From the IMG/VR virus record IMGVR_UViG_2579778856_000001: a stretch of 12,065 bases of DNA; one strand, given 5' to 3'. Position numbers and translations under genes: made by a program. The notes beneath the pieces are model-generated. The model saw only the letters and a list, made by a program, of their open reading frames with translations. It ran no database searches and had not been told where the DNA came from. Of the stretch, positions 242-12,065 are shown one piece after another. This DNA comes from a virus. Its lineage: Duplodnaviria; Heunggongvirae; Uroviricota; Caudoviricetes. Position 1 is the stretch's first letter. Each line of letters starts with the position of its first letter.

Positions 242-395
242 GTCCCTTCTGGTCAAAATGGACGAAGAAATGCTCTGCTTCTTCGACAGCAACGGGCGAA
301 CCACCATGCCCCGTAAAGCTTTCTCCCTGCGTACTGGCGTAACCCGCCGCCAGCTGTTTCCAGACGCCATTTACTTCATTGAACGGGAGTTCTGA
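210..395 (+). CDS. Short ORF (61 aa), stop overlaps the RBS of the RadC-like gene; possibly the 3' remnant of a gene disrupted by the upstream IS
   Basis: ATG at 210, stop TGA 393-395, one nucleotide before the RadC ATG at 397. Reading frame is open from 192 and passes through the putative IS end (229-241). No recognisable domain. Confidence 0.3.
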   Translation: MATYGGQFTLTSLLVKMDEEMLCFFDSNGRTTMPRKAFSLRTGVTRRQLFPDAIYFIEREF

Positions 396-396
396 C

Positions 397-849
397 ATGA
401 CCATGTTTACCCAGCGTGAAACCCGTATCCTTGACCAGGCGCGTGACATTATTAGCCGGTACTACCAGCGTGGGGTTCAACTCTGTTCCCCTGATGATGT
501 TCGACGGTGCGTGATGGTTGAGCTGGCACCGCTTGAACATGAAGAGTTTGGCATCATCCTACTCGATAATCATAATCAGCTGCTGCACCGCGAAATCCTG
601 TTCAGGGGTACGCTAAACTCGGTCAGCGTTCACCCCCGTGAAGTTATTAAGCGTGTGCTGAAACATAACGCCGCCGCCGTCATCCTTGTCCATAATCACC
701 CCAGCGGCGAGCCTGAACCCAGCCGGTGTGACATCCAGTTGACCAAAAAGCTTCAGGAGCTGCTGGAAATACTGGATGTGCGGTTACTTGATCACTTTAT
801 CGTGGCAGGAACTGAAACGGTGTCGATGGCTGAGCGAGGACTGGTGTGA
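397..849 (+). CDS. RadC-like JAB/MPN-domain protein (UPF0758; YeeS/YfjY/YkfG-like)
   Basis: 150 aa from ATG 397 with SD GGGAG at 385-389 (the track's 379 start is a TTG extension). Contains the JAMM signature HNHPSGEPEPSRCD (H-x-H-x7-S-x2-D) with an upstream Glu. Size and motif match the RadC-like proteins of E. coli cryptic prophage islands. Confidence 0.85.
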   Translation: MTMFTQRETRILDQARDIISRYYQRGVQLCSPDDVRRCVMVELAPLEHEEFGIILLDNHNQLLHREILFRGTLNSVSVHPREVIKRVLKHNAAAVILVHNHPSGEPEPSRCDIQLTKKLQELLEILDVRLLDHFIVAGTETVSMAERGLV

Positions 850-895
850 TGCTGAAAGTTACTTGGTTTAATGTACGTTATTGCGGGTTACGCGC

Positions 896-1825
896 ATGAG
901 CAGGACAGCGTTGCGTCAGGTCGTGCCGGTGGTGCAAACCACCGTGTTCGATGCGTATATTGTCGGTCTGGCCCCCTCGGGACGGCGAGGTATCACCAGC
1001 CTGTTAAACCGCAGCGCCAGCATACTTAAACACGGTGCGGATGCAGCAGACTATCCGTGGGAACAACTTAACTACGCCGCCGTTGCCAAAGTGCGCGCGG
1101 CACTGCTGGATGACGGTTACGCCGTGTCATCGGTCAACATGGCGCTGTCAGCACTCCGGGGCGTAGCGCAGACGGCCTTTAACCTCAATTACATGGATGC
1201 CGAAACGCTGGCACGTATCCGGTCAGTTAAGCGCGTGAGCGGCGATGTCCAGCGCAAGGGAAGGGCGCTGGGCAGGCAGGAAATCCGGGTACTGATTCAG
1301 GCTGCAAAACAGCATCCGCAATCTGTACGGCGCTGTCGCGATGTCGCCATTGTGCTGATGCTTTGCGGAACGGGCCTGCGGGCCGGGGAACTGGTTAAAC
1401 TTGAGCGCCGGGACTATGACAACGGCATCCTGACGGTGAGGCAAGGGAAGGGGCGTAAATACCGTGAAATTCACGTGGCGGATGCGGTGGACAAGGCTAT
1501 TCGTGCGTGGCTGAAAGTTGGCGCAGACGAGGCTGACAGTGCGTTGTTTAGGCGAATTCAGCGCAGTGGTAAGGTCGCAAGCCAACCGCTGACTACGACC
1601 GGGTTAACGGGTATCCTGGCTGAGTTACAGCAAACGGCAGGTATAGCACGTTTTACCCCGCATGATATGCGGCGCACCTTCATCACCCGTTTGCTGGAGC
1701 AGGGCGTGGATATCAATACCGTCCGCCAGTTGGCAGGCCACAGCGACATATCCACGACGACGCGCTATGACTGTCGTGGTGATACTATGAAGATCAGTGC
1801 CAGCAAGCGCATCAGATGTTTTTAG
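896..1825 (+). CDS. Tyrosine-type site-specific recombinase/integrase (XerC/D-like, short form, 309 aa)
   Basis: Complete catalytic signature in order: R in GLRAGEL, K in RQGKGRKYREIHV, H-x-x-R in HDMRRTF, H in AGHSD, Y in TTRYD. ATG 896 preferred over the track's TTG at 881. Stop TAG 1823-1825. Confidence 0.85.
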   Translation: MSRTALRQVVPVVQTTVFDAYIVGLAPSGRRGITSLLNRSASILKHGADAADYPWEQLNYAAVAKVRAALLDDGYAVSSVNMALSALRGVAQTAFNLNYMDAETLARIRSVKRVSGDVQRKGRALGRQEIRVLIQAAKQHPQSVRRCRDVAIVLMLCGTGLRAGELVKLERRDYDNGILTVRQGKGRKYREIHVADAVDKAIRAWLKVGADEADSALFRRIQRSGKVASQPLTTTGLTGILAELQQTAGIARFTPHDMRRTFITRLLEQGVDINTVRQLAGHSDISTTTRYDCRGDTMKISASKRIRCF

Positions 1826-2426
1826 CAGTTGAGGCGTTGCCAGACTCGGTTTCAGTTTCATCTTCAGCACTCAACCGCGCGTACTTTTGATTCTGGATGT
1901 TAATTTGTGCATTGATATTTTCAGGCTGAAGCATCCACGCAACATCCTCACGCGCCCATTCTTTACCGTCAGAGAGTCGTTTTAACCGGGGTTTCCATAT
2001 TCCATACTCATTAAGTTTTTCTGCTACCGAAGCATATTTCTCACGATCTGACTCCCCCGTATGAAGCTTGTCAAAACGACCTTTTACAAGCTGGTAAACA
2101 GTATAGATTTCCAGTGCCTTAGGGGACCTGGCCGGGACTATCATGGGGTGTTCCTCCGGCCTATAAATCCCGTTTGGCTCTCCCTCATTGAGCAGGTCAT
2201 TAAACATGTGGTTCACGCAGGCACTCAGCACATCTGCCGCTTTCTCCGCAGCGAATTTATCCGGGCTAAAACCCGCTCCCGTCAGTTTCCGGGCAATCAG
2301 TGCCAGTTTTTGCCGGGTATCCCGTCCCAGATAAAGCTTCTTCTCCAGAAATTCAAAGACCTCGTTACTGCTTTTCCGTTCCCGGTGGCATCTGGCGTCA
2401 GCCTTGTTGCTTTGGTTACCAATCAT
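1812..2426 (-). CDS. Hypothetical protein (204 aa), unknown function, divergent from alpA
   Basis: Long minus-strand ORF. Second ATG (2426-2424) is preceded by a perfect SD GGAGGTG (plus 2429-2435), so start MIGNQSNK... is preferred over the ATG at 2438. 3' end overlaps the integrase 3' end by 14 bp (convergent). Acidic C-terminal tail. No motif I can assign. Confidence 0.6.
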   Translation of the reverse strand: MIGNQSNKADARCHRERKSSNEVFEFLEKKLYLGRDTRQKLALIARKLTGAGFSPDKFAAEKAADVLSACVNHMFNDLLNEGEPNGIYRPEEHPMIVPARSPKALEIYTVYQLVKGRFDKLHTGESDREKYASVAEKLNEYGIWKPRLKRLSDGKEWAREDVAWMLQPENINAQINIQNQKYARLSAEDETETESGNASTAKNI

Positions 2427-2445
2427 AGTCACCTCCATGACAGTG

Positions 2446-2457
2446 TTTTGTACAAAA
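2446..2457. promoter_or_regulatory. Perfect 12-bp palindrome TTTTGTACAAAA in the divergent promoter region; candidate operator
   Basis: Seen directly, about 10 bp upstream of the SD of the 1812-2426 gene and within the 222-bp divergent region shared with alpA. Confidence 0.3.
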
Positions 2458-2648
2458 TATCACCATTGAGCCTCAGTGAAAATTGCTTCTTTATATGACC
2501 GTTCTGGAGACAGAAATAGATGATCTCGAATGACATCCACATTAAAGATGCCCTTAACGTGCTCAACGAAGGCATCGTTGAGTGAATCCTTGCGTTTTTT
2601 GGTGGTTGTAAATAACCCGCTCCTGAAACAGCTCAAAGGAGCACAAGC

Positions 2649-2846
2649 ATGAACACCAACCGTATTTTGCGTAAAAAAGAGGTACTTCATCTGACGGGGA
2701 ACTCGTCAGCGACGTTGTACCGACTCATCTCGAAAGGATTCTTTCCTTTGTCAAAGAGGCTAACGGGCGACAATGGCCGGGCGGTAGGCTGGCTGGAGAG
2801 TGATATCAATAACTGGGTTAACAGCCGTATGCAGGCGGGAGAATGA
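2649..2846 (+). CDS. alpA: AlpA-family (Vis/excisionase-like) helix-turn-helix transcriptional regulator
   Basis: 65 aa, SD AAGGAG at 2636-2641. RILRKKEVLHLTG-x-S-x-ATLYRLI...FP...G-x-RAVGWLESDINNWV aligns with the recalled E. coli CP4-57 AlpA (RILRLPAVIQKTGMARATIYDWL...FPKKRMLGVKSVGWIEAEIDEWL). Confidence 0.8.
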   Translation: MNTNRILRKKEVLHLTGNSSATLYRLISKGFFPLSKRLTGDNGRAVGWLESDINNWVNSRMQAGE

Positions 2847-2847
2847 A

Positions 2848-3315
2848 ATGAAAGAGATAAAATCGAAAACCAGTTCTGCGAAAAAAACGCTGGTTCCTTG
2901 GTTCGAAACTATGGGGAAACAGGTTGGTTTATCACAAGAAACGATATCAGCAGTGTTAAAGGAGCAGCGTTTACGGATACGTAAGCTTAACTACGCATCT
3001 GCATATACAGTGTCCAATATTCTCATACAGGATTGCGGCGGGGCCGATGACATGTGGAGCAACTACGCTAAACTGGCGCTTATCCTTGAGCGTTGTAAAT
3101 ACATTCCCTGCGGGAGCAGGGCCTGTGCATATTGTTCTACCGCTCAGCAATTACATTATCAGGGGGTGGATGTAACCGGGGAATACGCTTTATATCAGTT
3201 GCCTGAGTTATTTTTAGATTTTTTAGAAACAAACGACAAAAATTCCTCTTATCATTGGGATTACAATAAGTTAGTTGAGCGGCATGAAGATGCTCAGGCG
3301 AGGTCATTCGGGTAA
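2848..3315 (+). CDS. Hypothetical protein (155 aa) with N-terminal HTH-like segment and C-terminal Cys4 cluster (C-x4-C-x4-C-x2-C)
   Basis: ATG 2848 lies 1 nt after the alpA stop (GGGAGAATGAAATG; translational coupling); the track's 2800 start overlaps alpA. Cysteines at residues 83, 88, 93, 96 (CKYIPCGSRACAYC). GC about 40-45 percent, lower than flanks. Confidence 0.6.
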   Translation: MKEIKSKTSSAKKTLVPWFETMGKQVGLSQETISAVLKEQRLRIRKLNYASAYTVSNILIQDCGGADDMWSNYAKLALILERCKYIPCGSRACAYCSTAQQLHYQGVDVTGEYALYQLPELFLDFLETNDKNSSYHWDYNKLVERHEDAQARSFG

Positions 3316-3346
3316 TAGCCATTTCTGTATGGTGAAAAACTGACAT

Positions 3347-3381
3347 ATTACCCTGCCACTGCATTTTGGTGGCAGGGTAAT
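3347..3381. promoter_or_regulatory. Perfect 13-bp inverted repeat (ATTACCCTGCCAC, 9-nt spacer, GTGGCAGGGTAAT); operator or RNA hairpin between the two Cys-cluster genes
   Basis: Seen directly, 32 bp after the upstream stop and 22 bp before the next ATG. No T-tract immediately 3' on the plus strand, so not a canonical intrinsic terminator. Contains the 12-mer CCACTGCATTTT that recurs at 4335-4346. Confidence 0.4.
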
Positions 3382-3402
3382 CAATACAGCTAGGAATATT
3401 AA

Positions 3403-4257
3403 ATGAACGATTCTTATTACTTCAGAACATCTGACCCGGATTACATTCGTCACGCACCGTCAATGCTTGAGATTTTAAGTAAAGCATTCCCCACTATTAT
3501 TACCCAGCAGGAAAGTGAGTATGAACTGCAGCGTCTTAACCATTTACTAAATAAACTGAAAGGCAGCAATCGCTGCTACAACATCATTGCTCAAAAACTA
3601 AGGCAGTGCAGAAACGGATCTCCATGCAACAGTCTTATATGCCCGCATTGCCAGCGGGAACGCATTCTGGCGCAACTGGCTATGTTGCATGTCTTGCCGG
3701 GGAATTCAGCAGAATACGTGGGAGTGGTCCTGTTTTTCAACAAGGATACGCAAACTCCGCCGCCATGGAAGAACATTGGGGCGCTCAGGGCGCAAATCGG
3801 TCGTTATAAGCAGAGGATAAGCCGGGTACTTAACCGCCTGGGGTACGCCGGTCCGGCCACAGGCACCTTCAGTATGATGCGACATATGCCTGATGGCCCA
3901 GAAGAGCGTATTTTCTGGGTTCCACAGTTGTGTTTGTTCCTGCCCAATGACAGTACGTTGATTAAGGGGCTAAAAGCGCATATGTCGCGAAGTGGTGGGG
4001 CATTCATTGATGCATCGACGCTTAACACACCAGTGATCGTGCTCAGGTATAAAGATCCCGCGAGACTGATTTCATGCGCCCTGAATCCAGTCTGGCACAC
4101 AGCAGATTACACACTGACTGATAAAGACGCTCTTGTTAAGTCAAGAATGGAGCTACTGAAAGGCCGGACACTGTTAAAAAGTCTGCTTACCCTGGACTCA
4201 CTCGGAACAGGTGTCGTTTCTTTTTCGTTTGGGCAACCCCCAGGGAAAGTGCACTGA
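3403..4257 (+). CDS. Hypothetical protein (284 aa) with zinc-ribbon-like Cys4 cluster (C-x5-C-x4-C-x2-C)
   Basis: ATG 3403 with AGGA 7 nt upstream. Cys cluster CRNGSPCNSLICPHC at residues 69-83 (nt 3607-3651). No family assignable by eye. Confidence 0.65.
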   Translation: MNDSYYFRTSDPDYIRHAPSMLEILSKAFPTIITQQESEYELQRLNHLLNKLKGSNRCYNIIAQKLRQCRNGSPCNSLICPHCQRERILAQLAMLHVLPGNSAEYVGVVLFFNKDTQTPPPWKNIGALRAQIGRYKQRISRVLNRLGYAGPATGTFSMMRHMPDGPEERIFWVPQLCLFLPNDSTLIKGLKAHMSRSGGAFIDASTLNTPVIVLRYKDPARLISCALNPVWHTADYTLTDKDALVKSRMELLKGRTLLKSLLTLDSLGTGVVSFSFGQPPGKVH

Positions 4258-4269
4258 TTTACCGGTAAT

Positions 4270-4370
4270 GCAGCAACTGCAATGCACTTTTGCTGTTGAT
4301 TAAATTGCAGTGGAACGACGAATAACAGCGGCAACCACTGCATTTTCGTTGTTGTAAAACTGCAAAGCTT
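4270..4370. repeat. Iteron-like repeat cluster: four copies of ACTGCA(A/T) (one inverted), an 8-bp perfect inverted repeat, and ATGCACTTT twice
   Basis: ACTGCAA at 4276-4282, inverted copy at 4305-4311, ACTGCAT at 4337-4343, ACTGCAA at 4359-4365. IR TGCAGTGG 4306-4313 / CCACTGCA 4335-4342. ATGCACTTT at 4282-4290 and again at 4393-4401. Confidence 0.4.
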
Positions 4371-4519
4371 GCCAGTGATTTTGATGGCGCTGATGCACTT
4401 TAACATTCCAACTGTCTCGATTTTAACGCAACCGTCTGTTTTCTGCAGGGGCTCACGGATGCCTCTGCACACCCGATCCTTACCATCAACTGACGAGTTA
4501 GCGCATCTGTGAGGGCTTT

Positions 4520-4833
4520 CTGTGTTTCTGTCAGTGAATATTCTACACACAATGGGGGGAGCGGTCAGCGAGCACCATTGCCATTGAGCGCAACGGAGAG
4601 CTTGGGGACATGCAGCACTACGGAGGCTTCATCTCCTTCTCATGTCATTAAACGATACGGCGAACGAGCGCAGCGAGTGAGGGAAGGCGTCAGCCTGAAC
4701 AGGGGGAAAGATTTGCGACCGGAGTGGAGCAAATCATGGGCGGAGCCCATCCTCGCGACTGGGGTTTTGACTTTCGAATTGCCCAGCGTTGAGTTTGGTT
4801 AATGTAGTGAGACGAGGATGCTGAGAGGGGACC
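4520..4833 (+). other. Purine/G-rich non-coding segment; candidate structured 5' leader or small RNA upstream of the polymerase-like gene
   Basis: No ATG-initiated ORF of plausible codon usage. The only track ORF here (4509-4802) starts with GTG and is rich in rare codons (AGG, CGA, GGG). Runs such as GGGGGGAGCGG, GAGGGAAGGCG, ACAGGGGGAAAG. Tight hairpin ATGGGC-GGA-GCCCAT at 4736-4750. Confidence 0.25.
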
Positions 4834-6231
4834 GTGAGTACTGAAAAGGATTATCCAGTGAAGATCCCTAAGTGGGTTTATGACCGTATTACTGAAATAA
4901 CGGATTATGTCGTGGGGGATACGCAATGGGCTGTTACCCGGCGGCAGACAGTACGGTGGTTCCTGGCTCACATATGGCTGGAAACAGACGATGATGGCTG
5001 GACTATATGCACTGTCCGGGATATCCGTAGCAGCTATGCCAGTCTCCTGGGACAGTGTGAAATTAGTTACCAGGGGGAGTGCTTTATGTCCACGCTAACT
5101 GATTTCCTGCCGACACTTTCGGATATTGAATTTCGTGCAGGAAAAGCGAGCAAAGACCCGGAAAAGCGTAGAGCCAGTGCATGGCGGTTCAACCCCCTGC
5201 TGCCTGTGTGTGATGAGTCTGCCAGGGGTAAGTTAAATCTGGTTGACTTGGATACTGGTGAGTCTGTTAGTTTTAGAGCTCTGCTTCAGGGGAACGGGAA
5301 AGCTCCTGGGCATGCGATAGATGTAGAGAAACGCCAGACGGCCCTAAAACAAACGGAAAAGGACTTCTTGGCCAAAGTTGGGCGGGGGCGCATGAGTATA
5401 CAGTTTGTGAAGGAATTGCGTAGCCGTGAGCCGGATCACTATTACCGCGCAGGAATACGCAGCCTTAACCATCTCTACAATGGCAGGATTGAGGGACAAT
5501 ATGTCACTTACGACCATCATTATCGTCTGACGTTTGGAGGGCGGTATTATGATCAAGCTTTCCAGAATCTGCCCAATGAGTTCAAAGCTAAATTTCGGAC
5601 CGGGTTACTCAACTATGACATCGAAGCGTGCAATCTGGCCTGTCTGAACCATCTGTTCAGACAGTATGACGTCGATTATCGTGTGAAGTCATCGATATAT
5701 AAAACCATGATGGAACATACCGGGCTGACCCGTAAACAGTGCAAACAGATGGTCCATACCACCACCTACAGAATTGGGCGTGTGACTATTGGTGTTAATG
5801 ATGGCCTTGGGGCAAAAGTGTATGGATGGTGCGGTAACAGCAAAAAAAAGGCGCTAAAGATTTTGCGTTGGTGGAACCGTTATATCAGTCCATTGAAATC
5901 TGCGCTTGAGTCATTGCTGGAACGTGTGCATGGCGCACACCGCAAGAGTTGTTCATCACCGCGTAACTATCACAGGTACGCTAATGAAGTCGGATTAATA
6001 CTGGATCTTAATAGTGAGGTGTATCAGCGTGAAAAGACTCACCATCATCAATATGCGCGGAATAAGGCACTGTTGGCGTTTATGATCTGTGGTGTGGAGC
6101 AGGCGTATATCCGTGAGGTTGTCAGTATGAACCCTGGTCGTGTCTGCATGCTGGATCATGATGGGGTAGTGGCAACGGGCGCGCTTTCACTACCGGACTG
6201 GCGTGGTTTCACGATGAAAGTGAAGGACTAG
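4834..6231 (+). CDS. Uncharacterised protein (465 aa) with family-A / T7-like single-subunit polymerase motifs A, B (O-helix) and C; putative minimal right-hand polymerase
   Basis: GTG start at 4834 with SD GAGAGGGGA immediately upstream and in-frame stop at 4822-4824. Motif A-like NYDIEACNLACLNHL (res 260-274; compare Pol I DYSQIELRIMAHL). O-helix-like RKQCKQMVHTTTY (R300, K304, H308, Y312; compare Pol I R754-K758-F762-Y766). Motif C-like CMLDHDGVV (res 438-446; compare Pol I MQVHDELV). A-to-B and B-to-C spacing (about 42 and 137 aa) resembles Klenow and T7 DNA polymerase. Motif-level inference only. Confidence 0.65.
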   Translation: MSTEKDYPVKIPKWVYDRITEITDYVVGDTQWAVTRRQTVRWFLAHIWLETDDDGWTICTVRDIRSSYASLLGQCEISYQGECFMSTLTDFLPTLSDIEFRAGKASKDPEKRRASAWRFNPLLPVCDESARGKLNLVDLDTGESVSFRALLQGNGKAPGHAIDVEKRQTALKQTEKDFLAKVGRGRMSIQFVKELRSREPDHYYRAGIRSLNHLYNGRIEGQYVTYDHHYRLTFGGRYYDQAFQNLPNEFKAKFRTGLLNYDIEACNLACLNHLFRQYDVDYRVKSSIYKTMMEHTGLTRKQCKQMVHTTTYRIGRVTIGVNDGLGAKVYGWCGNSKKKALKILRWWNRYISPLKSALESLLERVHGAHRKSCSSPRNYHRYANEVGLILDLNSEVYQREKTHHHQYARNKALLAFMICGVEQAYIREVVSMNPGRVCMLDHDGVVATGALSLPDWRGFTMKVKD

Positions 6232-6297
6232 CTTACTTTCTTGAATTTAACTATCTGCGATCTCTGATAAGGGCGTATTACGTTGTCAATCATAATG

Positions 6298-6328
6298 GGA
6301 TATGCGCATTGGAACGATGTGCATATCC
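6298..6328. repeat. 11-bp inverted repeat / hairpin (GGATATGCGCA, 9-nt spacer, TGTGCATATCC; one G-T position)
   Basis: Seen directly, 67 bp after the polymerase-like gene stop and 27 bp before the IS30-type terminal repeat. No downstream T-tract. Confidence 0.3.
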
Positions 6329-6355
6329 AGTAAGTGATCCATGTCCGCTTTGAGC

Positions 6356-7090
6356 TGTGAGTTCAACGGGTCGATGCAACGCTGTCCCTAATCAAGGGGG
6401 ACGTTGCCATGAAACGAAGAACTCGTATTAACTACACGCCAGAGCAAAAGGTGATTATTTGGGACAGATATAAGCAAGGTGATTCCCTGCATGATATCCC
6501 CCAGAATGTTCGACAGATTTCACTCTACTATCATGCCTACAATCCACCAGGCCGGTGGCTACCGTCCTCCCGTGCGAAAGCGGCACCGGTTAGCGTTTTC
6601 GCTTGATGAAAAAGAGGAGATATCCAGAGGACTGGTAGCAAAACGCATCATCAGGGACATCGCTGCTAAATTATCAATAGCTCCCTCAACGATTAGCCGC
6701 GAGATCAGGAGGCACGGCGGTGCAAAACAATACCGTGCAGCAAAAGCCGATCCTGCTGCGTGGGAAAATGCTCTGAGACCAAAACCTTGCAAGCTAATTG
6801 AAAGCCCCACATTGTGTAAAATCATTGCAGAGAAGATGCATCAGGACTGGTCGCCGGAACAAATTGGCGGTTGGCTAAAACGCTGTTATCCCGATAATCA
6901 GGAAATGCATGTGTCACATGAAATGATTTATAAAACGCTTTTTATACCAACCCGGGGAGCTTTAAAAAAAGAGCTGCAGCAATGCCTCAGAAGCGGAAGA
7001 GTAGTGCGTAGATCCAAAACCTCATCACTTAAAGTAAACAGAGATACATTCTGGTCACGAATGCCCGGTTGTTCGTGCTTTGCGTTTTAA
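6356..7090 (+). mobile_element. IS30-family insertion sequence remnant (left inverted repeat plus 5' part of the transposase gene; 3' half deleted)
   Basis: Left end TGTGAGTTCAACGGGTCGATGCAAC at 6356-6380 resembles the recalled IS30 IRL (TGTAGATTCAATTGGTCAACGCAAC). Transposase ORF begins 53 bp inside. Element ends abruptly; no right repeat before the membrane protein gene. Confidence 0.7.
6409..7090 (+). pseudogene. IS30-family transposase, frameshifted near 6498-6502 and truncated (N-terminal HTH region only, DDE domain missing)
   Basis: Track ORFs 6409-6606 and 6479-7090 are consecutive pieces of one IS30-like transposase in two frames. MKRRTRINYTPEQKVIIWDRYKQGDSLHDI then, in the other frame, FDRFHSTIMP...RKRHRLAFSLDEKEEISRGL...APSTISREIRRHGG...KPCKL...WSPEQIGGWL...EMIYKTLF. 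Frame switch coincides with a C5 run. Product about 200 aa versus about 380 for intact IS30 transposase. Confidence 0.75.
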
Positions 7091-7154
7091 TCGCATTTTA
7101 CAGTTTCTGCCTGCGTGCAGAGGTTGATGGTATTTTCTGAAAAAGCGGCTCGCT

Positions 7155-7182
7155 TTGCTAATGCATATGGCACAAATACAAC
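7155..7182 (+). promoter_or_regulatory. Candidate sigma70-type promoter (TTGCTA, 16-bp spacer, TACAAC) upstream of the membrane protein gene
   Basis: Hexamers at 7155-7160 and 7177-7182, about 45 bp upstream of ATG 7228. Matched by eye; weak -10. Confidence 0.2.
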
Positions 7183-7227
7183 AGTTTGTGTCATTCTGAC
7201 CCATCTTTATACCGCGACGGTGGAAAC

Positions 7228-9798
7228 ATGGATGAGCTGCTAACCCTTGGCTGCATTGCTTTATTCTTCGCACTGGTGGTGGTTCCCATCCTCGCGATTA
7301 TCGCGCTCAGCCGCAGCACGGCTGTTCGTTCTGAGCTGGCGACCCTGCGTCGCCGGGTGGAGGTGCTTGAGCAGCGCGGTGTGACTGAAGCACCCGCCAC
7401 AGTGGTAACAACTGTGCCGCAGAGTGTTTCGCAGATGGTTGTGCCTGTTGAAACGTCTTCGCCTGCGGTTAACATCGTGCTGTCGGAGCCTGTGGCTGAT
7501 GTCACGCCTGAGTCCGTTGACCCCTGGCGTCCACAACCGAAGCCGCAAAACGAGGCGCTACCCACACCAGCGGTCGAACAATCTTCCGCTTTTGGTGGGG
7601 TGATGTCGTCCCTGGTGCGCTGGTTTATGCAGGGCAACCCGCTGGCAAAGCTGGGTATTCTGCTTCTCTTCCTTGGCTTCTCCTTCCTGCTGCGTTATAC
7701 GGTTGAACACTCCCTGTTCCCGCTTGAGCTACGTCTGGTGGCGACTTCGCTGTTTGCGATTGCCCTGCTGGTAGTGGGCTGGCGATTGCGGCATAAACAG
7801 CTGGTTTATGCGCTGATCATACAGGGTGGAGCTACGGGGACGCTCTATCTCACCGTTTTTGGCGCATTCTGGCTCTGGCAGATGCTGCCGATGACGCTGG
7901 CGTTTGCATTACTGGTGGCGATTTGCGCGGCGAGCGTGGGACTGGCGATTATGCAAAAAGCGCTCAGCCTCGCGATGCTGGCAAGTATCGGTGGCTATCT
8001 GGCACCGCTGTTGCTTTCCACCGGCGGCGGTAGTCATGTGGCGCTCTTCTCTTTCTACCTTCTGCTTTCCGTCGGTATTCTCGCCATCAGCATCTGGCAA
8101 CACTGGCGCGAGCTTAATCTGCTTGGCCTGTTATTTACCTTTGGTATCGGCGGTCTTTGGGGACTCGACGGCTATCGATCAGAGTATTACCTGAGCAGTC
8201 AGCTTTTCCTGATAGCCAATACGATCATTTTTGGTGTGCTGAGCGTGGCGCTATCGCTACGAGCACAGGAGAAAGGTAAGCAGATTATTGATGGCGTGCT
8301 GTTGTTTGCATCGCCGCTGGTCGGTTTTGGCATGCAGTACGCCATAACCCGGCATATGGAATATGGTCCGGCGCTTAGCGCGCTGGGTTACGGCGGTTTC
8401 TATCTGGCGTTAGCATGGCTTGCATTGCGTCGCTATCCCTCTTTGGGGAGGCCGCTGGTGCTGGCGGCGCTGGCGCTGGGTGGGGCATTTACCACGCTCG
8501 CTATCCCACTGGCGCTTTCGGCCCGCTGGACGGCGATGGCCTGGGCGCTGGAAGGTCTCGGCATCCTCTGGCTGGGCGTGCAACAGCAGCAGCGGCGTAT
8601 GAGCTATAGCGGCACTGCGCTGCTGGTGCTGGCAGTGTGCAGCGCGCTGTGGGCGCAGATGAACGGGATGAGCGCGCTTTCTCTGGTGCTAATCTTTGCC
8701 GTACTCAGCCTCAGCTGGCTGGCTGCCGCCTGGCTGTGGCGCAATATTCAGTTGCAGGGTAGTTGGGTTCTGTTGGCTGGCGGTTTGATCTTCTGGATAA
8801 TCGCGCTCATTGGGGCATCGCAACTGGTGCTGAAAAAGGACTCGCTGGTGCTGTCTGGCGTGCTGGCGTTAATGGCGATATCGGTCTGGGGCTGGCGGAT
8901 TGTCTCTGGTCGTCTGGCCTGGTGGGAGCTGGATGTCAGCAAATGGTTGCTGTGGCCGACGATGCTGGTGATGCTGCTGTCTCAAATTTCACAACATGAG
9001 ATTTTTGCTGCGGGCTGGCAGAATCTGGCCTGGTGTCTGGCGTTACCCGCTGCGGGGGCATTGCTCTGGCGTGATGCTGAGACGTTGCCGCCGCGCCTCT
9101 CCAGACTGGCGCACCTTTCACTCTTCTGGATGATTCTGCTCGCGCTGGCGGCGGAGCTATTCTGGTTTGCGCAAGATCTGCCATGGGGCATGGCGGCGTG
9201 GGGCTCCGGCCTGATGATGGCCGCGGGGGGCCTGCTCATCTTTCTCGTTCATGAGGCGGTTCATCGTCAGCTATGGCCATTCCGAAGCTGGCCCGCACTC
9301 TACGCTTCTCAGGCGATGATACCGGTAGCTGCGGTATTGGTTGTTCTGCTAGTACTGACGAATTTGCAGGATGGCGTAGTTTATCGCCAGACCTGGCTGC
9401 CGCTGGTGAATCCACTGGAGGAGGGGGCCGCTTTTGCGCTACTGGGACTCATTGTATTTTATCGCGTTTCGCAGCGCTTTTTCCCGGTGCAGATTTCGGT
9501 ATGCCGTCCCTGGCCGCTCATTGCACTGCTGGCGCTTAGCTTCTGGTGGCTGAATGGCATCCTGCTGCGCGCATTGGCCTGGTACGGCGAAGTGCCCTGG
9601 AGCGCGGAAACACTGTGGCATTCGCGGCTGATTCAGACCTGTTTTGCCCTGTTCTGGATGCTGGCGGCATTAGTGGTGATGCTACGTGCGACCCGGCGTT
9701 GCTCACGTCGCGAATGGCTTTGTGGATCCGTATTGTTAGGGATTGTTATTGTGAAACTGATGTTGGTAGACAGTGCGCGTGGCGGCGGCCTGGCATGA
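7228..9798 (+). CDS. Large polytopic inner-membrane protein (857 aa); N-terminal TM helix, coiled-coil, Pro/Val/Thr-rich linker, then about 20 predicted TM helices; family unassigned
   Basis: ATG 7228 preceded by GGTGGA (the track's 7186 start is a TTG extension). Long hydrophobic stretches rich in L/A/G/W separated by short polar loops. GC well above the island genes (sampled 60-bp stretch about 68 percent). Stop TGA 9796-9798. Confidence 0.8.
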   Translation: MDELLTLGCIALFFALVVVPILAIIALSRSTAVRSELATLRRRVEVLEQRGVTEAPATVVTTVPQSVSQMVVPVETSSPAVNIVLSEPVADVTPESVDPWRPQPKPQNEALPTPAVEQSSAFGGVMSSLVRWFMQGNPLAKLGILLLFLGFSFLLRYTVEHSLFPLELRLVATSLFAIALLVVGWRLRHKQLVYALIIQGGATGTLYLTVFGAFWLWQMLPMTLAFALLVAICAASVGLAIMQKALSLAMLASIGGYLAPLLLSTGGGSHVALFSFYLLLSVGILAISIWQHWRELNLLGLLFTFGIGGLWGLDGYRSEYYLSSQLFLIANTIIFGVLSVALSLRAQEKGKQIIDGVLLFASPLVGFGMQYAITRHMEYGPALSALGYGGFYLALAWLALRRYPSLGRPLVLAALALGGAFTTLAIPLALSARWTAMAWALEGLGILWLGVQQQQRRMSYSGTALLVLAVCSALWAQMNGMSALSLVLIFAVLSLSWLAAAWLWRNIQLQGSWVLLAGGLIFWIIALIGASQLVLKKDSLVLSGVLALMAISVWGWRIVSGRLAWWELDVSKWLLWPTMLVMLLSQISQHEIFAAGWQNLAWCLALPAAGALLWRDAETLPPRLSRLAHLSLFWMILLALAAELFWFAQDLPWGMAAWGSGLMMAAGGLLIFLVHEAVHRQLWPFRSWPALYASQAMIPVAAVLVVLLVLTNLQDGVVYRQTWLPLVNPLEEGAAFALLGLIVFYRVSQRFFPVQISVCRPWPLIALLALSFWWLNGILLRALAWYGEVPWSAETLWHSRLIQTCFALFWMLAALVVMLRATRRCSRREWLCGSVLLGIVIVKLMLVDSARGGGLA

Positions 9799-9991
9799 TC
9801 AGACATGAGATAAATGAAGGGGGATCCGTGAGATAAATAACGAATTGGAGTGGGTTAACATGGGTTCTGGTGAACAGAACTGAAATTCTTTTCCGCTATA
9901 CGATAGATAAGTCGGGCATTGAAATCATCCTTCCTGGCAACTTAGAATCGAGTTTGCTGAAACATGACCCGCAACAAAAAGGATGATTCCA

Positions 9992-10153
9992 ATGACTACT
10001 CAAAACAATAAGCATGATAGCCTGGATTACTCAGAAAAGCCCAAAAGCAAGCACATCGTGACGTTCGAGCGCGATTCCGGTAGAAAAGGAGAATCGTCTT
10101 CCTCTGCCAATAAAACCACTATGCCGGCAGCCCCTGCCCCAGGGAAAAAATAA
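9992..10153 (+). CDS. Possible small hydrophilic protein (53 aa), K/S-rich; not in the ORF track because under 60 aa
   Basis: ATG 9992 with AAGGA 9 nt upstream. MTTQNNKHDSLDYSEKPKSKHIVTFERDSGRKGESSSSANKTTMPAAPAPGKK, stop TAA 10151-10153. Alternative in-frame ATG at 9983. Confidence 0.3.
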   Translation: MTTQNNKHDSLDYSEKPKSKHIVTFERDSGRKGESSSSANKTTMPAAPAPGKK

Positions 10154-10156
10154 ACA

Positions 10157-10789
10157 TCATTCATCGTTCGTTGCACGAACGCGCCTGATCTCCACTCTGG
10201 CAATCTGATCTGCTGGAATATAGGTTGCCAGAGCTCCCCAGTACTTATCAACCACGCCTTTATACTCTTCCCATTCGTTACTGCCTGAAGGGCTGCTGTG
10301 CGTGACGTAAAGAACCATATCGCCTTTATTCCCCAGGGTAAACGGACCGTTAGGCCACTCTTCAAAGTTCCCTGGCAGCCGTGACATCATACCGGAACCA
10401 TCGCGAAGAATCACTCTGACCTCGGTAACGCTGAAGCCTGTTTGATCAAACATTGCCTGCCATGCTGAGCTGGTATCGTCAGACCATGAAATATCATTAT
10501 TCCACAGTAATCTGTACATCCATTTGCGACCGTACCTGCGCCACCACGCACCGCATGTAAGGGCACACAGAAGTGCTGGTGGTGTTGCCAGCCAGGCATT
10601 CAGACCTGCCCACATAACAGCCTGGTAAGCCATCATTGCTGTCAGGCCAAAAATCAGCGAAGAAAAAGTCACCTCAATGGGCTTGTGGTGATCCTTCAGT
10701 CCCACATTCGCAATAAAATACCCAATATAGCCACTGGTCAGGGTCACCAGTGTTGCCCATGGCAGATTTAACAACGAAACGTCAAACAT
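10157..10789 (-). CDS. Membrane protein (210 aa): three predicted N-terminal TM helices plus a soluble C-terminal domain; unknown function
   Basis: Start at the ATG for MFDVSLLNLPW... (plus 10787-10789) preceded by SD GGGAG. The track's longer start is a TTG lying inside the upstream terminator hairpin. Sits directly downstream of the mor terminator. Confidence 0.65.
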   Translation of the reverse strand: MFDVSLLNLPWATLVTLTSGYIGYFIANVGLKDHHKPIEVTFSSLIFGLTAMMAYQAVMWAGLNAWLATPPALLCALTCGAWWRRYGRKWMYRLLWNNDISWSDDTSSAWQAMFDQTGFSVTEVRVILRDGSGMMSRLPGNFEEWPNGPFTLGNKGDMVLYVTHSSPSGSNEWEEYKGVVDKYWGALATYIPADQIARVEIRRVRATNDE

Positions 10790-10827
10790 ATTTTCTCCCT
10801 GCATCCTGAATACTAAAGAGAGAGCAT

Positions 10828-10861
10828 AAAAAAAGCACGGTAAGGGGTCTACCGTGCTTTT
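10828..10861 (-). terminator. Rho-independent terminator (bidirectional hairpin) downstream of mor
   Basis: 9-bp stem AGCACGGTA / TACCGTGCT (10834-10842 and 10850-10858) with 7-nt loop, flanked by an A7 run at 10828-10834 (a U7 tract on the minus-strand transcript) and TTTT at 10858-10861 on the plus strand. Confidence 0.6.
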
Positions 10862-10903
10862 ATACAATAAGGAGATTTTTGAAAGGACTTTAACAAGCAG
10901 GAA

Positions 10904-11302
10904 TTATCTGGATTTGTTAACGTCTTTCGTCTCCTCTGGCAGATCTTCATCAAACAACCTGCCCTGCATCCGATCCAGTTCTTCTTTTCTGACCCGCTTA
11001 ACCACGCTGTAGACCCACTGAAGCGAAACACCAAACTTGCGGGCCAGTTCGTGGTGGTTGCGTCCGTTAAACTCCCTGAAGATTTCCCGGTCGCGCTGAC
11101 TGACCTTCCATACCATGCCCATCGGGAAATAAACGTTTTGCCCGCCCCAGACCTGCATCATTCGGTTCGCGACGGCCTGACCAATCTGGTCGGCAACTTC
11201 GGGCTCAATATCAATAATCTCGCGAACGGTCTCAGAGGTATGCTGTGCCAGTTCCACCAGGAGTTCCGGCCCCTTACTTCGAAACTGATTCAGGTCGCTC
11301 AT
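10904..11302 (-). CDS. mor: Mor-family transcriptional activator (phage Mu middle operon regulator-like)
   Basis: 132 aa. WGGQNVYFPMG...RDREIFREFNGRNHHELARKFGVSLQWVYSVVKRVR aligns with the recalled Mu Mor core (GGGQVYIPRG...RD...FNGRN...EL...YGV...VY...R). Confidence 0.75.
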   Translation of the reverse strand: MSDLNQFRSKGPELLVELAQHTSETVREIIDIEPEVADQIGQAVANRMMQVWGGQNVYFPMGMVWKVSQRDREIFREFNGRNHHELARKFGVSLQWVYSVVKRVRKEELDRMQGRLFDEDLPEETKDVNKSR

Positions 11303-11726
11303 GTTTGACTCCCGCAGCTCTGCGCTGCCACTTCTTCAGTTTCTCAATAACACTGCTTGCCTGTTCAGTACTGAGCCAGCGCAGGGCGCTGATGCCCGTT
11401 TCCCGCTTGATCCACCGCGCTAATGCATTTTCTGAACGGTCACGAACAATGCCGGCAGCAGCCATTTCAAGCCATAGCGCACGGATTTTCCTGGACTGCG
11501 GATGGTTATCCAGCGGTAAACCGGAGCTGGCTTTTCCGGCAGGCTTAACGCGAAAGCCTTTCCTTTTCATGGATTCCAGCACGCAGTTTAGTTGTGTGGT
11601 ATCCATTCCTTTGGTTGAGGCTTTACCGGTCAGCCCCTGTAACATCTGGCGGTAGGTGTCTTCATCCATACCCAGTTCATTACGGGCAATATGAATGAGC
11701 TGGATAAGACGTTGTTTAGTCATCAT
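11274..11726 (-). CDS. Mu gp16/GemA-like protein (DUF1018-type), upstream partner of mor
   Basis: RLIQLIHIARNELGMDEDTYRQMLQGLTGKAS...SRKIRALW pattern as in Mu-like prophage gp16/GemA proteins. 3' end overlaps the mor start by 29 bp. Start chosen at the ATGATG pair preceded by AAAGGAG rather than the track's 11765. My reading here was off by one base relative to the track; track frame used. Confidence 0.6.
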   Translation of the reverse strand: MMTKQRLIQLIHIARNELGMDEDTYRQMLQGLTGKASTKGMDTTQLNCVLESMKRKGFRVKPAGKASSGLPLDNHPQSRKIRALWLEMAAAGIVRDRSENALARWIKRETGISALRWLSTEQASSVIEKLKKWQRRAAGVKHERPESVSK

Positions 11727-11931
11727 CGTTGCTCCTTTTACCTGCGCCACCGATATAATCGACATATAAAGGAAGCGCCACAGGCCAGCACAGGAACATC
11801 ACCGACCAGCTAATCCAGTAGCCAGCACCACTGTAACGTGAATAAAACCCTGAACGGCGGTGCAGTTCAGCAGTACACCAACCGACAAAACAATACCAGA
11901 ACAGGGCACATACAACAGATTCAGCCGTCAT
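11716..11931 (-). CDS. Possible small membrane protein (about 71 aa, two TM helices) overlapping the gemA-like start
   Basis: Track ORF 11716-12045 starts with TTG; first ATG gives MTAESVVCALFWYCFVGWCTAELHRRSGFYSRYSGAGYWISWSVMFLCWPVALPLYVDYIGGAGKRSNDDD. Stop overlaps the gemA-like start (coupling). Weak SD. Confidence 0.3.
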   Translation of the reverse strand: MTAESVVCALFWYCFVGWCTAELHRRSGFYSRYSGAGYWISWSVMFLCWPVALPLYVDYIGGAGKRSNDDD

Positions 11932-12065
11932 TCTGAATATCCCCCCAACTGATATGAATATTACGGGCAGCAATGACAGGGTCGTTATTCCACCATGCAC
12001 CTGACATGTATTTTTCAACCTGTTCGCGTCCGGCAATAACACCAATTGTGATCCCCGGCCTGACG

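Follow-up and report, generated by a model that had tools for sequence, protein, structure and literature searches.

The window analysed here, which is the whole 12,065 nucleotides (nt) of the IMG/VR virus record IMGVR_UViG_2579778856_000001, contains a gene (gene C) whose 465-amino-acid (aa) product shows the predicted fold and the catalytic motifs of family-A polymerases, and which is accompanied in every locus compared by one conserved non-coding site upstream of its start. The gene C family appears to be undescribed and is best classed as a novel offshoot of an already known superfamily, compact and strongly diverged, with a new architectural setting; a literature search by accession, motif and keyword among about 8 million papers and preprints found no description of the family or of its module. 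Our favoured reading, tentative and held at somewhat less than even confidence, is that gene C and this site would constitute an AlpA-controlled, site-specific polymerase and a cis element that launch the replication or transcription of a satellite-like island. An earlier note, made from the letters of the window, had pointed out three same-strand genes (A, B and C) flanked by AlpA and a recombinase upstream and by an IS30 remnant downstream, an arrangement that Pfam and the open reading frame (ORF) map bear out. It had also recognised no family for the three proteins, and together with a neighbouring 208-aa protein they gave zero usable matches in Pfam, PADLOC, NCBIfam and PHROGs.

The homologues of gene C fall into 78 clusters, all from Enterobacterales and all annotated as hypothetical or left unnamed, which reach down to 45% identity and keep the full length of ~460 aa. 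With 22 homologues as input, AlphaFold gave a confident model (predicted local distance difference test, pLDDT, 82; predicted template modelling score, pTM, 0.77) that contains the palm/fingers fold of Pol I type, in line with the polymerase-like character that the earlier note had ascribed to this protein. When the model was compared with the PDB by Foldseek, the top 50 matches were exclusively family-A DNA polymerases (DNAPs); likeness was also found to the mitochondrial, T7 and N4 RNA polymerases (RNAPs), with 320-365 residues aligned, more than for the DNAPs. The modelled protein is made of an N-terminal alpha/beta domain followed by compact palm/fingers at about residues 210-465 (~250 aa), with no exonuclease domain. 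A close-up view of the sequence allows reading, by inspection, of the motifs GGR...FQNLP, NYDIEAC (motif A, D262), RKQCKQMVHTTTY (motif B, with R300, K304 and Y312, also written RKQCKxxVHTTTY in the alignment), CGVEQAY and LDHDG (motif C, H442 and D443), where GGR...FQNLP and CGVEQAY presumably correspond to the textbook TGRLSS..PNLQNIP and PIQGSAAD. Residues were mapped to Klenow/T7 numbering likewise by inspection of the sequence. With the exception of Y312, a consensus residue only, the residues named (H442 and the four key positions D262, D443, R300 and K304) are invariant in the 22 homologues down to 45% identity. The steric-gate Glu of motif A and the Glu following HD in motif C, both typical of DNAPs, are missing, and N/S/C and G are aligned by inspection at these places (NYDIEAC[NSC], DHDG). 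A hairpin at residues 375-392 looks, again by inspection, like the YVxTxxGRRR hairpin of Pol I and not like an inserted loop. As for the N-terminal domain, the order of helices and strands in its first ~100 residues is compatible by eye with a winged helix, and it probably binds DNA. Altogether, fold and motifs point to a family-A superfamily member that is catalytically intact, though strongly diverged and of uncommonly small size, and for which polymerase activity is predicted. It could be argued that such an extreme divergence from all profile models, together with the very small size and the absence of an exonuclease domain and of an evident thumb, would rather suit a polymerase-derived factor that no longer polymerises and acts as a DNA-binding regulator or structural protein, for instance in the control of excision or packaging. 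We regard this possibility as very unlikely, because the two catalytic Asp and the O-helix-like Arg/Lys are invariant over 45-100% identity and are retained in a paralogous type of the protein.

This second type was reached by a profile search of 1.84 billion representative proteins, which gave 71 matches, ~50 of them to distant proteins of 440-590 aa that match the polymerase domain only and carry no Pfam domain. Profile-profile comparison joins gene C and type 2 (hhalign 99.9%, E 2e-35), the latter being 483-502 aa long in islands, with the catalytic D, K and HDG retained and with more canonical motifs (GGRLFE..GFQxLP, NYDIxSSQL, AKxxLYGxxFxAG, HxIQGxE and EHDG). Both types share islands in two loci, L002 (type 2 at 4381-5889, minus strand) and L007 (12215-13666, plus strand, downstream of C), where a non-coding region of 760-830 nt precedes type 2. 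In L007 this upstream region shows by eye a duplicated segment of ~260 bp (from ~11471 and ~11729) and an AT-rich tract, as well as, at ~12085-12125, a motif like that of gene C (AGCTACACA...GAGCGGGTGAGCGAG). A 551-aa protein located downstream of gene C in Serratia was considered as a further polymerase paralogue and ruled out.

Type 2 is also found in 41 jumbo-phage records (Erwinia 32, Dickeya 8 and Yersinia 1), such as those of Alexandravirus, Dickeya JA13/JA29 and fHe-Yen9-02, and corresponds to phrog_30690, annotated as of unknown function. Three of the phage genes (Erwinia Alexandra gp224, Dickeya JA29_202 and Yersinia fHe-Yen9-02 gp117c) share a syntenic position close to a Holliday-junction resolvase, and a gap of ~0.46-0.5 kb lies ahead of each, where short repeats of the GTAGCT/TGTATG type were seen by eye. 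Moreover, the best viral structural matches to the gene C model were uncharacterised proteins of Dickeya JA29 (E 1.7e-14, template modelling score 0.59, full length), JA11 and JA13 and of Erwinia Yoloswag, and these Dickeya and Erwinia proteins outrank the phage PolA enzymes. Pseudomonas phage PaBG, which stands in the same terminase tree of a 2018 Dickeya paper, encodes sigma factors as well as a distinct Pol I, so that the relatives of gene C are probably not the main replicase of these phages.

The other half of the proposed pair lies in the 576-bp gap between genes B and C, and the special status already claimed for this gap is supported. It had been described as ORF-poor and full of repeats, and each statement stands in part: mechanical ORFs of 50-147 aa do cross the gap, but its conservation consists of contiguous invariant blocks with non-triplet indels, as expected for non-coding DNA, and a 97-aa ORF at 4509-4802 was rejected as a gene on this pattern; three inverted-repeat units and two direct repeats are present, but Tandem Repeats Finder reported no tandem repeat. 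The most conserved element is a motif with the consensus CTACACAywATGGGGGGAGC, in which an AT-rich stretch is followed by CTACACA(C/T)(A/T)AT (CTACACACAAT in the window) and then by GGGGGGAGC, giving ~26 contiguous conserved bases. Exactly one copy was found per gene C locus, always on the same strand and 189-371 nt upstream of C, among 17 loci whose proteins are 45-100% identical. Furthermore, its variants follow the protein clades, with CACAAT or CACTAT in loci with gene B, CATAAT in those without it and CTACTCACTATGGGGCC in L002. An intact polymerase welded to one conserved site suggests that gene C and its upstream region act together as enzyme and cis site, and the recurrence of a polymerase behind a long non-coding region in two paralogous types and in phages argues for the same pairing.

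Promoters of T7-type polymerases are contiguous motifs of ~23 bp that span positions -17 to +6 and start with G. The layout of the gene C motif, with an AT-rich stretch, a specific octamer, a TA-rich tetramer and a G start, resembles this -17 to +6 arrangement of the T7 group, and identity to the T7 promoter amounts to 16/20 in L002, where it is the best site of the 17-kb locus, and to 13/20 in the window, a value exceeded by chance sites. In an unbiased scan with the T7 promoter, the motif fell outside the top five in loci other than L002 and the window, after which its identification as a T7-class promoter was downgraded, and it remains a lead. Searches of viral contigs gave no match to the exact motif and five single matches to a T7-style version, with no multi-promoter phage among them. 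In a metagenome scan, 33 of the 46 matches were due to chance and lacked gene C. In this regard, the motif could be a promoter read by others, either by the RNAP of a T7-like phage, as an infection sensor, or by an AlpA-aided host RNAP, with C as the induced product and the structured region that follows as a regulatory 5' leader or attenuator. In keeping with such a role, a -10-like hexamer (CACAAT, CATAAT or CACTAT) lies just before the G-run, the L002 variant approaches the T7 promoter, a terminator-like hairpin precedes gene C, and the deduced transcript would begin, by eye, with a hairpin, as do the class III leaders of T7. Nevertheless, no -35 element or sigma-70 promoter was predicted on the plus strand of the gap, a host promoter would need fewer than the ~26 contiguous bases conserved here, and no viral contig carries the motif or multiple T7-style copies; since the related motif seen by eye precedes the L007 paralogue as well, it seems tied to the polymerase family, and we consider a promoter serving other polymerases an unlikely explanation.

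Downstream of the motif, and partly overlapping it, a conserved GC-rich region is predicted to be structured, with hairpins at 4685-4696, 4710-4735 and 4736-4750, in which 95.7% of the cells are paired compared with 26-47% in slid controls. Five pairs are altered on both sides in a compensatory manner, and one U-A to U-G change, a single case read by eye, is compatible with a plus-strand RNA. The clade without gene B has a different yet structured leader, whose first hairpin is made from the G-run. No Rfam match was obtained for the whole window at E <= 1. A direct repeat, GAGCG(N0-2)CAGCGAG, is also found in this leader at 4559-4572 and 4666-4677, ~107 nt apart, and both copies are invariant in the window's clade.

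Comparison of the related loci changes the picture of a three-gene module. In L002, L005/L006, L010, L014 and L015 (45%, 48%, 54%, 50% and 47% identity to gene C, respectively) AlpA is followed by 345-460 nt of non-coding DNA and then by gene C, and both A and B are missing, so that the three genes do not hold as a conserved unit. What is conserved is the divergent 208-aa gene, AlpA, a non-coding cis element of 0.35-0.6 kb and gene C; A and B belong to some lineages only (E. coli-like, Serratia, Yersinia, Budvicia and Edaphovirga loci) and form no obligatory unit with C. Ahead of AlpA, most related loci have an opposite-strand gene of 174-223 aa, relatives of the 208-aa protein being detected by tblastn at 23-46% identity in L002, L005, L007, L013 and L015. 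AlpA lies directly upstream of the unit in the loci examined, and gene C comes directly after AlpA, or after AlpA-A-B. The islands have in common helix-turn-helix (HTH) proteins of the HTH_35/HTH_3 families, DUF2787, RadC, a Xer-like recombinase, the divergent 174-223-aa gene, AlpA and gene C, with a P4-type integrase at one end, in agreement with the horizontally acquired integrative element that had been suspected. The smallest example, L015, spans ~9 kb. No transfer or packaging genes were recognisable in the islands examined, nor was a primase-helicase, terS, capsid, psu, sid or delta gene recognised among their called genes and Pfam/PHROGs matches.

The variable content of these islands is largely defensive (OLD plus UvrD of Gabija-like type, AAA ATPases, SIR2_2, DUF3644/DUF4365, CdiA/CdiI, and a retron Ec67-like system with an ABC-three-component system). 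Such cargo surrounds the core in L001 (2899-8430, retron Ec67-like reverse transcriptase and ABC-three-component system), L002 (1455-4219, OLD and UvrD, Gabija-like), L005 (9524-13015, a 1163-aa SIR2_2 protein) and L014 (7569-9743, DUF3644 and DUF4365). Gene C keeps its fixed place after AlpA while this cargo turns over, and it thus behaves as part of the backbone and not as hotspot cargo. This position bears on the second of the two readings left open by the earlier note, an anti-phage system that synthesises nucleic acid in the manner of retrons or defence-associated reverse transcriptases (DRT), in which a transcript of the gap would serve as template or scaffold and the product would stop the phage or cause the death of its host cell. 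RNA can be copied by certain family-A enzymes, among them Pol theta and Taq, and gene C shares with retrons and DRT a polymerase gene beside a conserved structured non-coding region in a defence-island setting. On the other hand, it does not encode a reverse transcriptase (RVT, PADLOC and Rfam gave no match, and the fold is family-A), no effector gene conserved with it was found, it does not behave as cargo, and its phage orthologues look like syntenic core genes near a resolvase. Positive support for a defence role did not emerge, and we deem it improbable.

The alternative offered by the earlier note, a satellite-like replication module, fits better, as gene C occupies the slot that follows AlpA and holds the replicase in other elements, and what suffers is the idea of a self-contained replicon, weakened by near-absence from plasmids. 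In phage-inducible chromosomal islands (PICIs) and in P4 the same logic is found as in the int-alpA-repA-oriV order of PIMEs. The pri-rep-ori of PICIs, the alpha-ori of P4 and the alpA-repA-oriV of PIMEs all show an integrase, then a divergent regulator or alpA, then a replicase with its cis site, and defence cargo beside the core. For PIMEs this order has been demonstrated experimentally (bioRxiv 10.64898/2026.01.12.698999). The replicases of those elements are primase-helicases or RepA-type initiators, whereas here a family-A polymerase-like protein takes the place and no helicase, primase or packaging gene was recognised; as regards the features of PICI/P4-like satellites, integrase and AlpA are present in the islands, and primase and packaging or helper-interference genes were not recognised. 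Pseudomonas islands with int, alpA, RadC, HTH genes and defence cargo, and without transfer genes, are transduced as satellites by a jumbo phage (PMC12595487). Their I55 family shares with the present islands the tyrosine integrase, AlpA, RadC, HTH and defence genes and the lack of transfer genes, and the relatives of gene C are jumbo-phage-encoded, but sites and hosts differ (tmRNA in Pseudomonas, the ychF side in L001 and L003), an enterobacterial helper is not known and the word 'polymerase' is absent from the main text of that paper. It is because the place of gene C mirrors the replicase slot of other AlpA-controlled integrative elements, and because islands of the same gene set are jumbo-phage satellites in Pseudomonas, that the polymerase-and-site reading is favoured.

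Compared with family-A DNAPs (Klenow and Taq Pol I, Pol theta and T7 DNAP), gene C is only 465 aa long, with a polymerase part of ~250 aa and no 3'-5' or 5'-3' exonuclease, gives no DNA_pol_A match, shows HDG and not HDE and no conserved steric-gate Glu, and combines an unrelated N-terminal domain with a link to a cis element. Relative to T7-like RNAPs (T7, mitochondrial, N4 mini-vRNAP and N4 RNAPII), it is about half the size (their chains having 832-1095 residues), gives no RNA_pol match and has no evident N-terminal promoter-binding domain or long specificity loop, the DNAPs being structurally closer. These mixed affinities raise the possibility of a dedicated single-subunit RNAP for island expression, for example under host shut-off by the helper phage, with no role in replication. 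The longer alignments with mitochondrial, T7 and N4 enzymes, the two missing Glu, judged by inspection, and the promoter-like architecture of the motif go in this direction; against it, the top structural likeness and the QNLP and QG motifs belong to DNAPs, the large N-terminal promoter domain of T7-type RNAPs is not evident, and little would be transcribed beyond the leader and the gene itself, since there is a single motif copy per island. We find a purely transcriptional role quite unlikely. A structured transcript or promoter next to the point of action of a family-A polymerase is known from ColE1, with RNA II and Pol I, and from the T7 primary origin, and the gene C region would be analogous to them. 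In those RNA-primed origins the polymerase is a general one encoded elsewhere, whereas here its gene is welded to the site.

In the mechanism that we propose, induction of the island would lead AlpA to switch on the rightward unit, and the gene C protein would recognise the conserved motif or the structured region just upstream of its own gene. Nucleic acid would then be made at this place: RNA (a primer or a leader) with de novo initiation at the G-run, in the manner of T7 RNAP, or DNA extended from a transcript, as in the case of Pol I and ColE1. As a result, the excised island would replicate or amplify its own expression, probably while a helper phage infects the cell. For the window's lineage, A, B and the three inverted-repeat units may represent an added layer of DNA-binding or initiator-like factors.

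Several observations weigh against this proposal. The assignment as a polymerase is drawn from a predicted structure and a reading of motifs: gene C has no hidden Markov model (HMM) match to PF00476 or PF00940 and no Pfam/NCBIfam polymerase match at E <= 0.1, and searching the PDB sequences with individual proteins or profiles turned up nothing beyond noise and sub-threshold matches, such as those of type 2 to Pol theta (E 0.56) and Pol gamma (E 1.5). As no sequence profile reaches the curated polymerase families, the assignment stands at the level of fold and motifs. Likewise, the possible winged helix is deduced from the order of secondary structure and one weak match (E 0.07) in the paralogous type. 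The nearest structural neighbours are DNA and not RNA polymerases, so that the fold by itself would not lead one to expect de novo initiation; the T7-group likeness of the motif is only suggestive, its score in the window being beaten by chance; and a helicase or primase partner conserved with gene C was not found. Finally, the family is nearly absent from 72,556 plasmids, which makes a stand-alone replicon unlikely. The plasmid matches come from E. coli (two 'plasmid' records, of 377 kb and 542 kb), Proteus (two records of 4 Mb) and Synechocystis (one plasmid), and the single real plasmid copy is the last one, a frameshifted type 2 of Synechocystis sp. B12 (CP101716.1, 33 kb; L069 24088-25711, minus strand; HMM E 4e-25), with an upstream gap of ~0.9 kb and with no recognised Rep family among the annotated products or six large ORFs of the plasmid. 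Plasmid-borne relatives were therefore discarded as proof of replicon function. The three inverted-repeat units of the window, with their 55-nt period, and the two direct repeats might suit an iteron replicon; no Rep family match was obtained, and the family is nearly absent from plasmids.

A far bolder version would assign gene C and its paralogues to a lineage of their own among the family-A polymerases, new, miniature and site-specific, whose members start de novo at their own promoter or origin motif of ~26 nt, the smallest known single-subunit RNA polymerase or primase and a living intermediate between Pol I and T7 RNAP, used by jumbo phages and satellite islands to fire replication without host enzymes; we would give it only a low probability. 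If the favoured proposal were true, a common E. coli island would encode a previously unrecognised type of polymerase, present in 596 of the 5,426 complete genomes. An enzyme of about half the T7-type size bound to a single cis site would offer a minimal orthogonal polymerase/site pair and a candidate evolutionary step between DNA polymerase I and the phage and mitochondrial RNAPs. Moreover, it would give a first mechanistic handle on the self-amplification of integrase/AlpA/RadC 'defence islands' without transfer genes, and would connect these islands, at the level of a concrete gene, with the jumbo phages, in which the phrog_30690 copies are likewise unstudied. Should gene C instead be a defence system, it would be the first one built on a family-A polymerase.

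Regarding genes A and B, the two Cys4 proteins that the earlier note had recognised, both carry the motif C-x4/5-C-x4-C-x2-C. A matches the B-family profile (hhalign 79%, E 1.6e-5) over 53 columns around the Cys4, with no other region in common. In the B family, C-x5-C-x4-C-x2-C is invariant, and invariant residues include C69, N71, P74, C75, C80, C83, Y105, N113, G154, H161, N208 and W231. Orthologues of B at 35-50% identity occur in L004, L007, L008, L009, L013 and L030, its distribution comprising the E. coli-like clade and, at that identity, Serratia, Yersinia similis, Edaphovirga, Budvicia and two metagenomic loci; in L004, L007, L008 and L009, as well as in L003, the slot of gene A is taken by a 253-335-aa B paralogue. 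No Pfam or PDB match was obtained for B, and its AlphaFold2 model was too poor (pLDDT 46) to be taken to a fold search. The predicted secondary structure contains a beta-alpha-beta-beta-alpha-beta order at 105-203, and reading the strands 'VTLTFN' and 'PQLRLLLP' as a degenerate HUH/Rep-like domain was set aside as unsupported speculation. B is a candidate DNA-binding or initiator accessory protein. The A protein is 53-66% identical in L017, L026, L028, L029, L036 and L043, compared with 83-94% for AlpA, B and C there, which suggests fast evolution or cassette exchange of gene A alone.

The inverted-repeat units at the 3' end of B and beyond contain an 8-mer that has six of its eight window occurrences within 4246-4401. 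Equivalent inverted repeats are found in L003, L007, L008 and L009, all with gene B, and in none of the B-less loci, where the palindrome TTCCATTTTTAAAAATGGAA replaces them; the repeat array would thus go with A and B, which may bind to it. The palindrome, which may be an operator, lies just downstream of AlpA in L002 (~7668-7690) and L005 (~7656-7680), and occurs also in L010, L014 and L015. Paired repeats comparable to the direct repeats of the window were seen by eye in the alignment in L003 (TAACTG twice) and L007 (GTTAACT twice).

Table 1. Features of the window and, in the last three lines, type-2 loci of jumbo phages
Feature	Position	Strand	Remarks
RadC gene	379-849		ORF map and family scans
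Xer-like tyrosine recombinase	881-1825		ORF map and family scans
208-aa protein	1812..2438	-	No family match; divergent from AlpA; candidate regulator of the module; ORF map
AlpA-family regulator	2649..2846	+	First gene of the rightward unit; Pfam Phage_AlpA E 2.6e-12
Gene A	2848..3315	+	155-aa Cys4 protein
Perfect 13-bp inverted repeat	3347..3381		ATTACCCTGCCAC / GTGGCAGGGTAAT; 9-nt loop; 100% complementary; in the 87-nt spacer between A and B
Gene B	3403..4257	+	284-aa Cys4 protein, orphan family
Three inverted-repeat units of ~45 nt	4246-4290, 4302-4346, 4357-4401		AAAnTGCA...TGCAnTTT; period 55-56 nt; candidate protein-binding or hairpin array
Gap between genes B and C			576 bp
Two direct repeats	4409..4437	+	CAAC(T/C)GTCT, 20 nt apart; copies at 4409 and 4429
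Most conserved non-coding motif	4536..4562	+	AT-rich stretch, CTACACACAAT, GGGGGGAGC; candidate initiation site (promoter or origin)
Conserved GC-rich structured region	4553..4775	+	Candidate leader, non-coding RNA or origin DNA; 11 sequences of the window's clade share invariant blocks
Terminator-like hairpin and T-run	4751-4774
Gene C	4834..6231	+	465 aa; GTG start
IS30-type remnant	6409-7090		Followed by DUF2339 membrane gene
Alexandra gp224	L012 5432-7506
JA29_202	L062 3533-5629
fHe-Yen9-02 gp117c	L063 3363-5437

A single nucleotide separates the stop codon of AlpA from the start of gene A in the ORF map, and this spacing is counted as operon structure that supports the rightward unit. The GC content of the module is 48.1% (A 43%, B 49%, gap 51%, C 49%), which corrects the ~40% given in the earlier note and still lies below the 58% of the DUF2339 membrane gene, as the note had stated. 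Positions 242-9795 of the window are 100% identical to an island of the E. coli sequence type 131 (ST131) strain H105 (L001), located between dhaR and ychF, with the P4-type integrase at the end adjoining ychF, and also encoding the retron Ec67-like reverse transcriptase and the ABC-three-component system. About one in nine complete E. coli genomes has the region, ST131 strains included, and it is nearly full length in 567 of them. Among the top matches listed, several named ST131 strains among them, ISEc52 is annotated within the region. In H105 this element (L001 16880-18129) interrupts the gap at 4476-4478 of the window, past the direct repeats and 65 nt ahead of the conserved motif, leaving AlpA, A, B and the repeat array on one side and the motif with gene C on the other; the NCBI annotation of gene C in this strain is 381 aa long. 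The other top matches listed with this annotation apparently have the insertion at the same place in the gap. Identity to the ST131 island ends at 9795, within the 3' part of the DUF2339 gene, and the right flank of the window (9796-12065) carries on the minus strand Mu-like Mor (10904-11302) and GemA (11274-11765) genes, apparently a remnant or insertion of a transposable phage.

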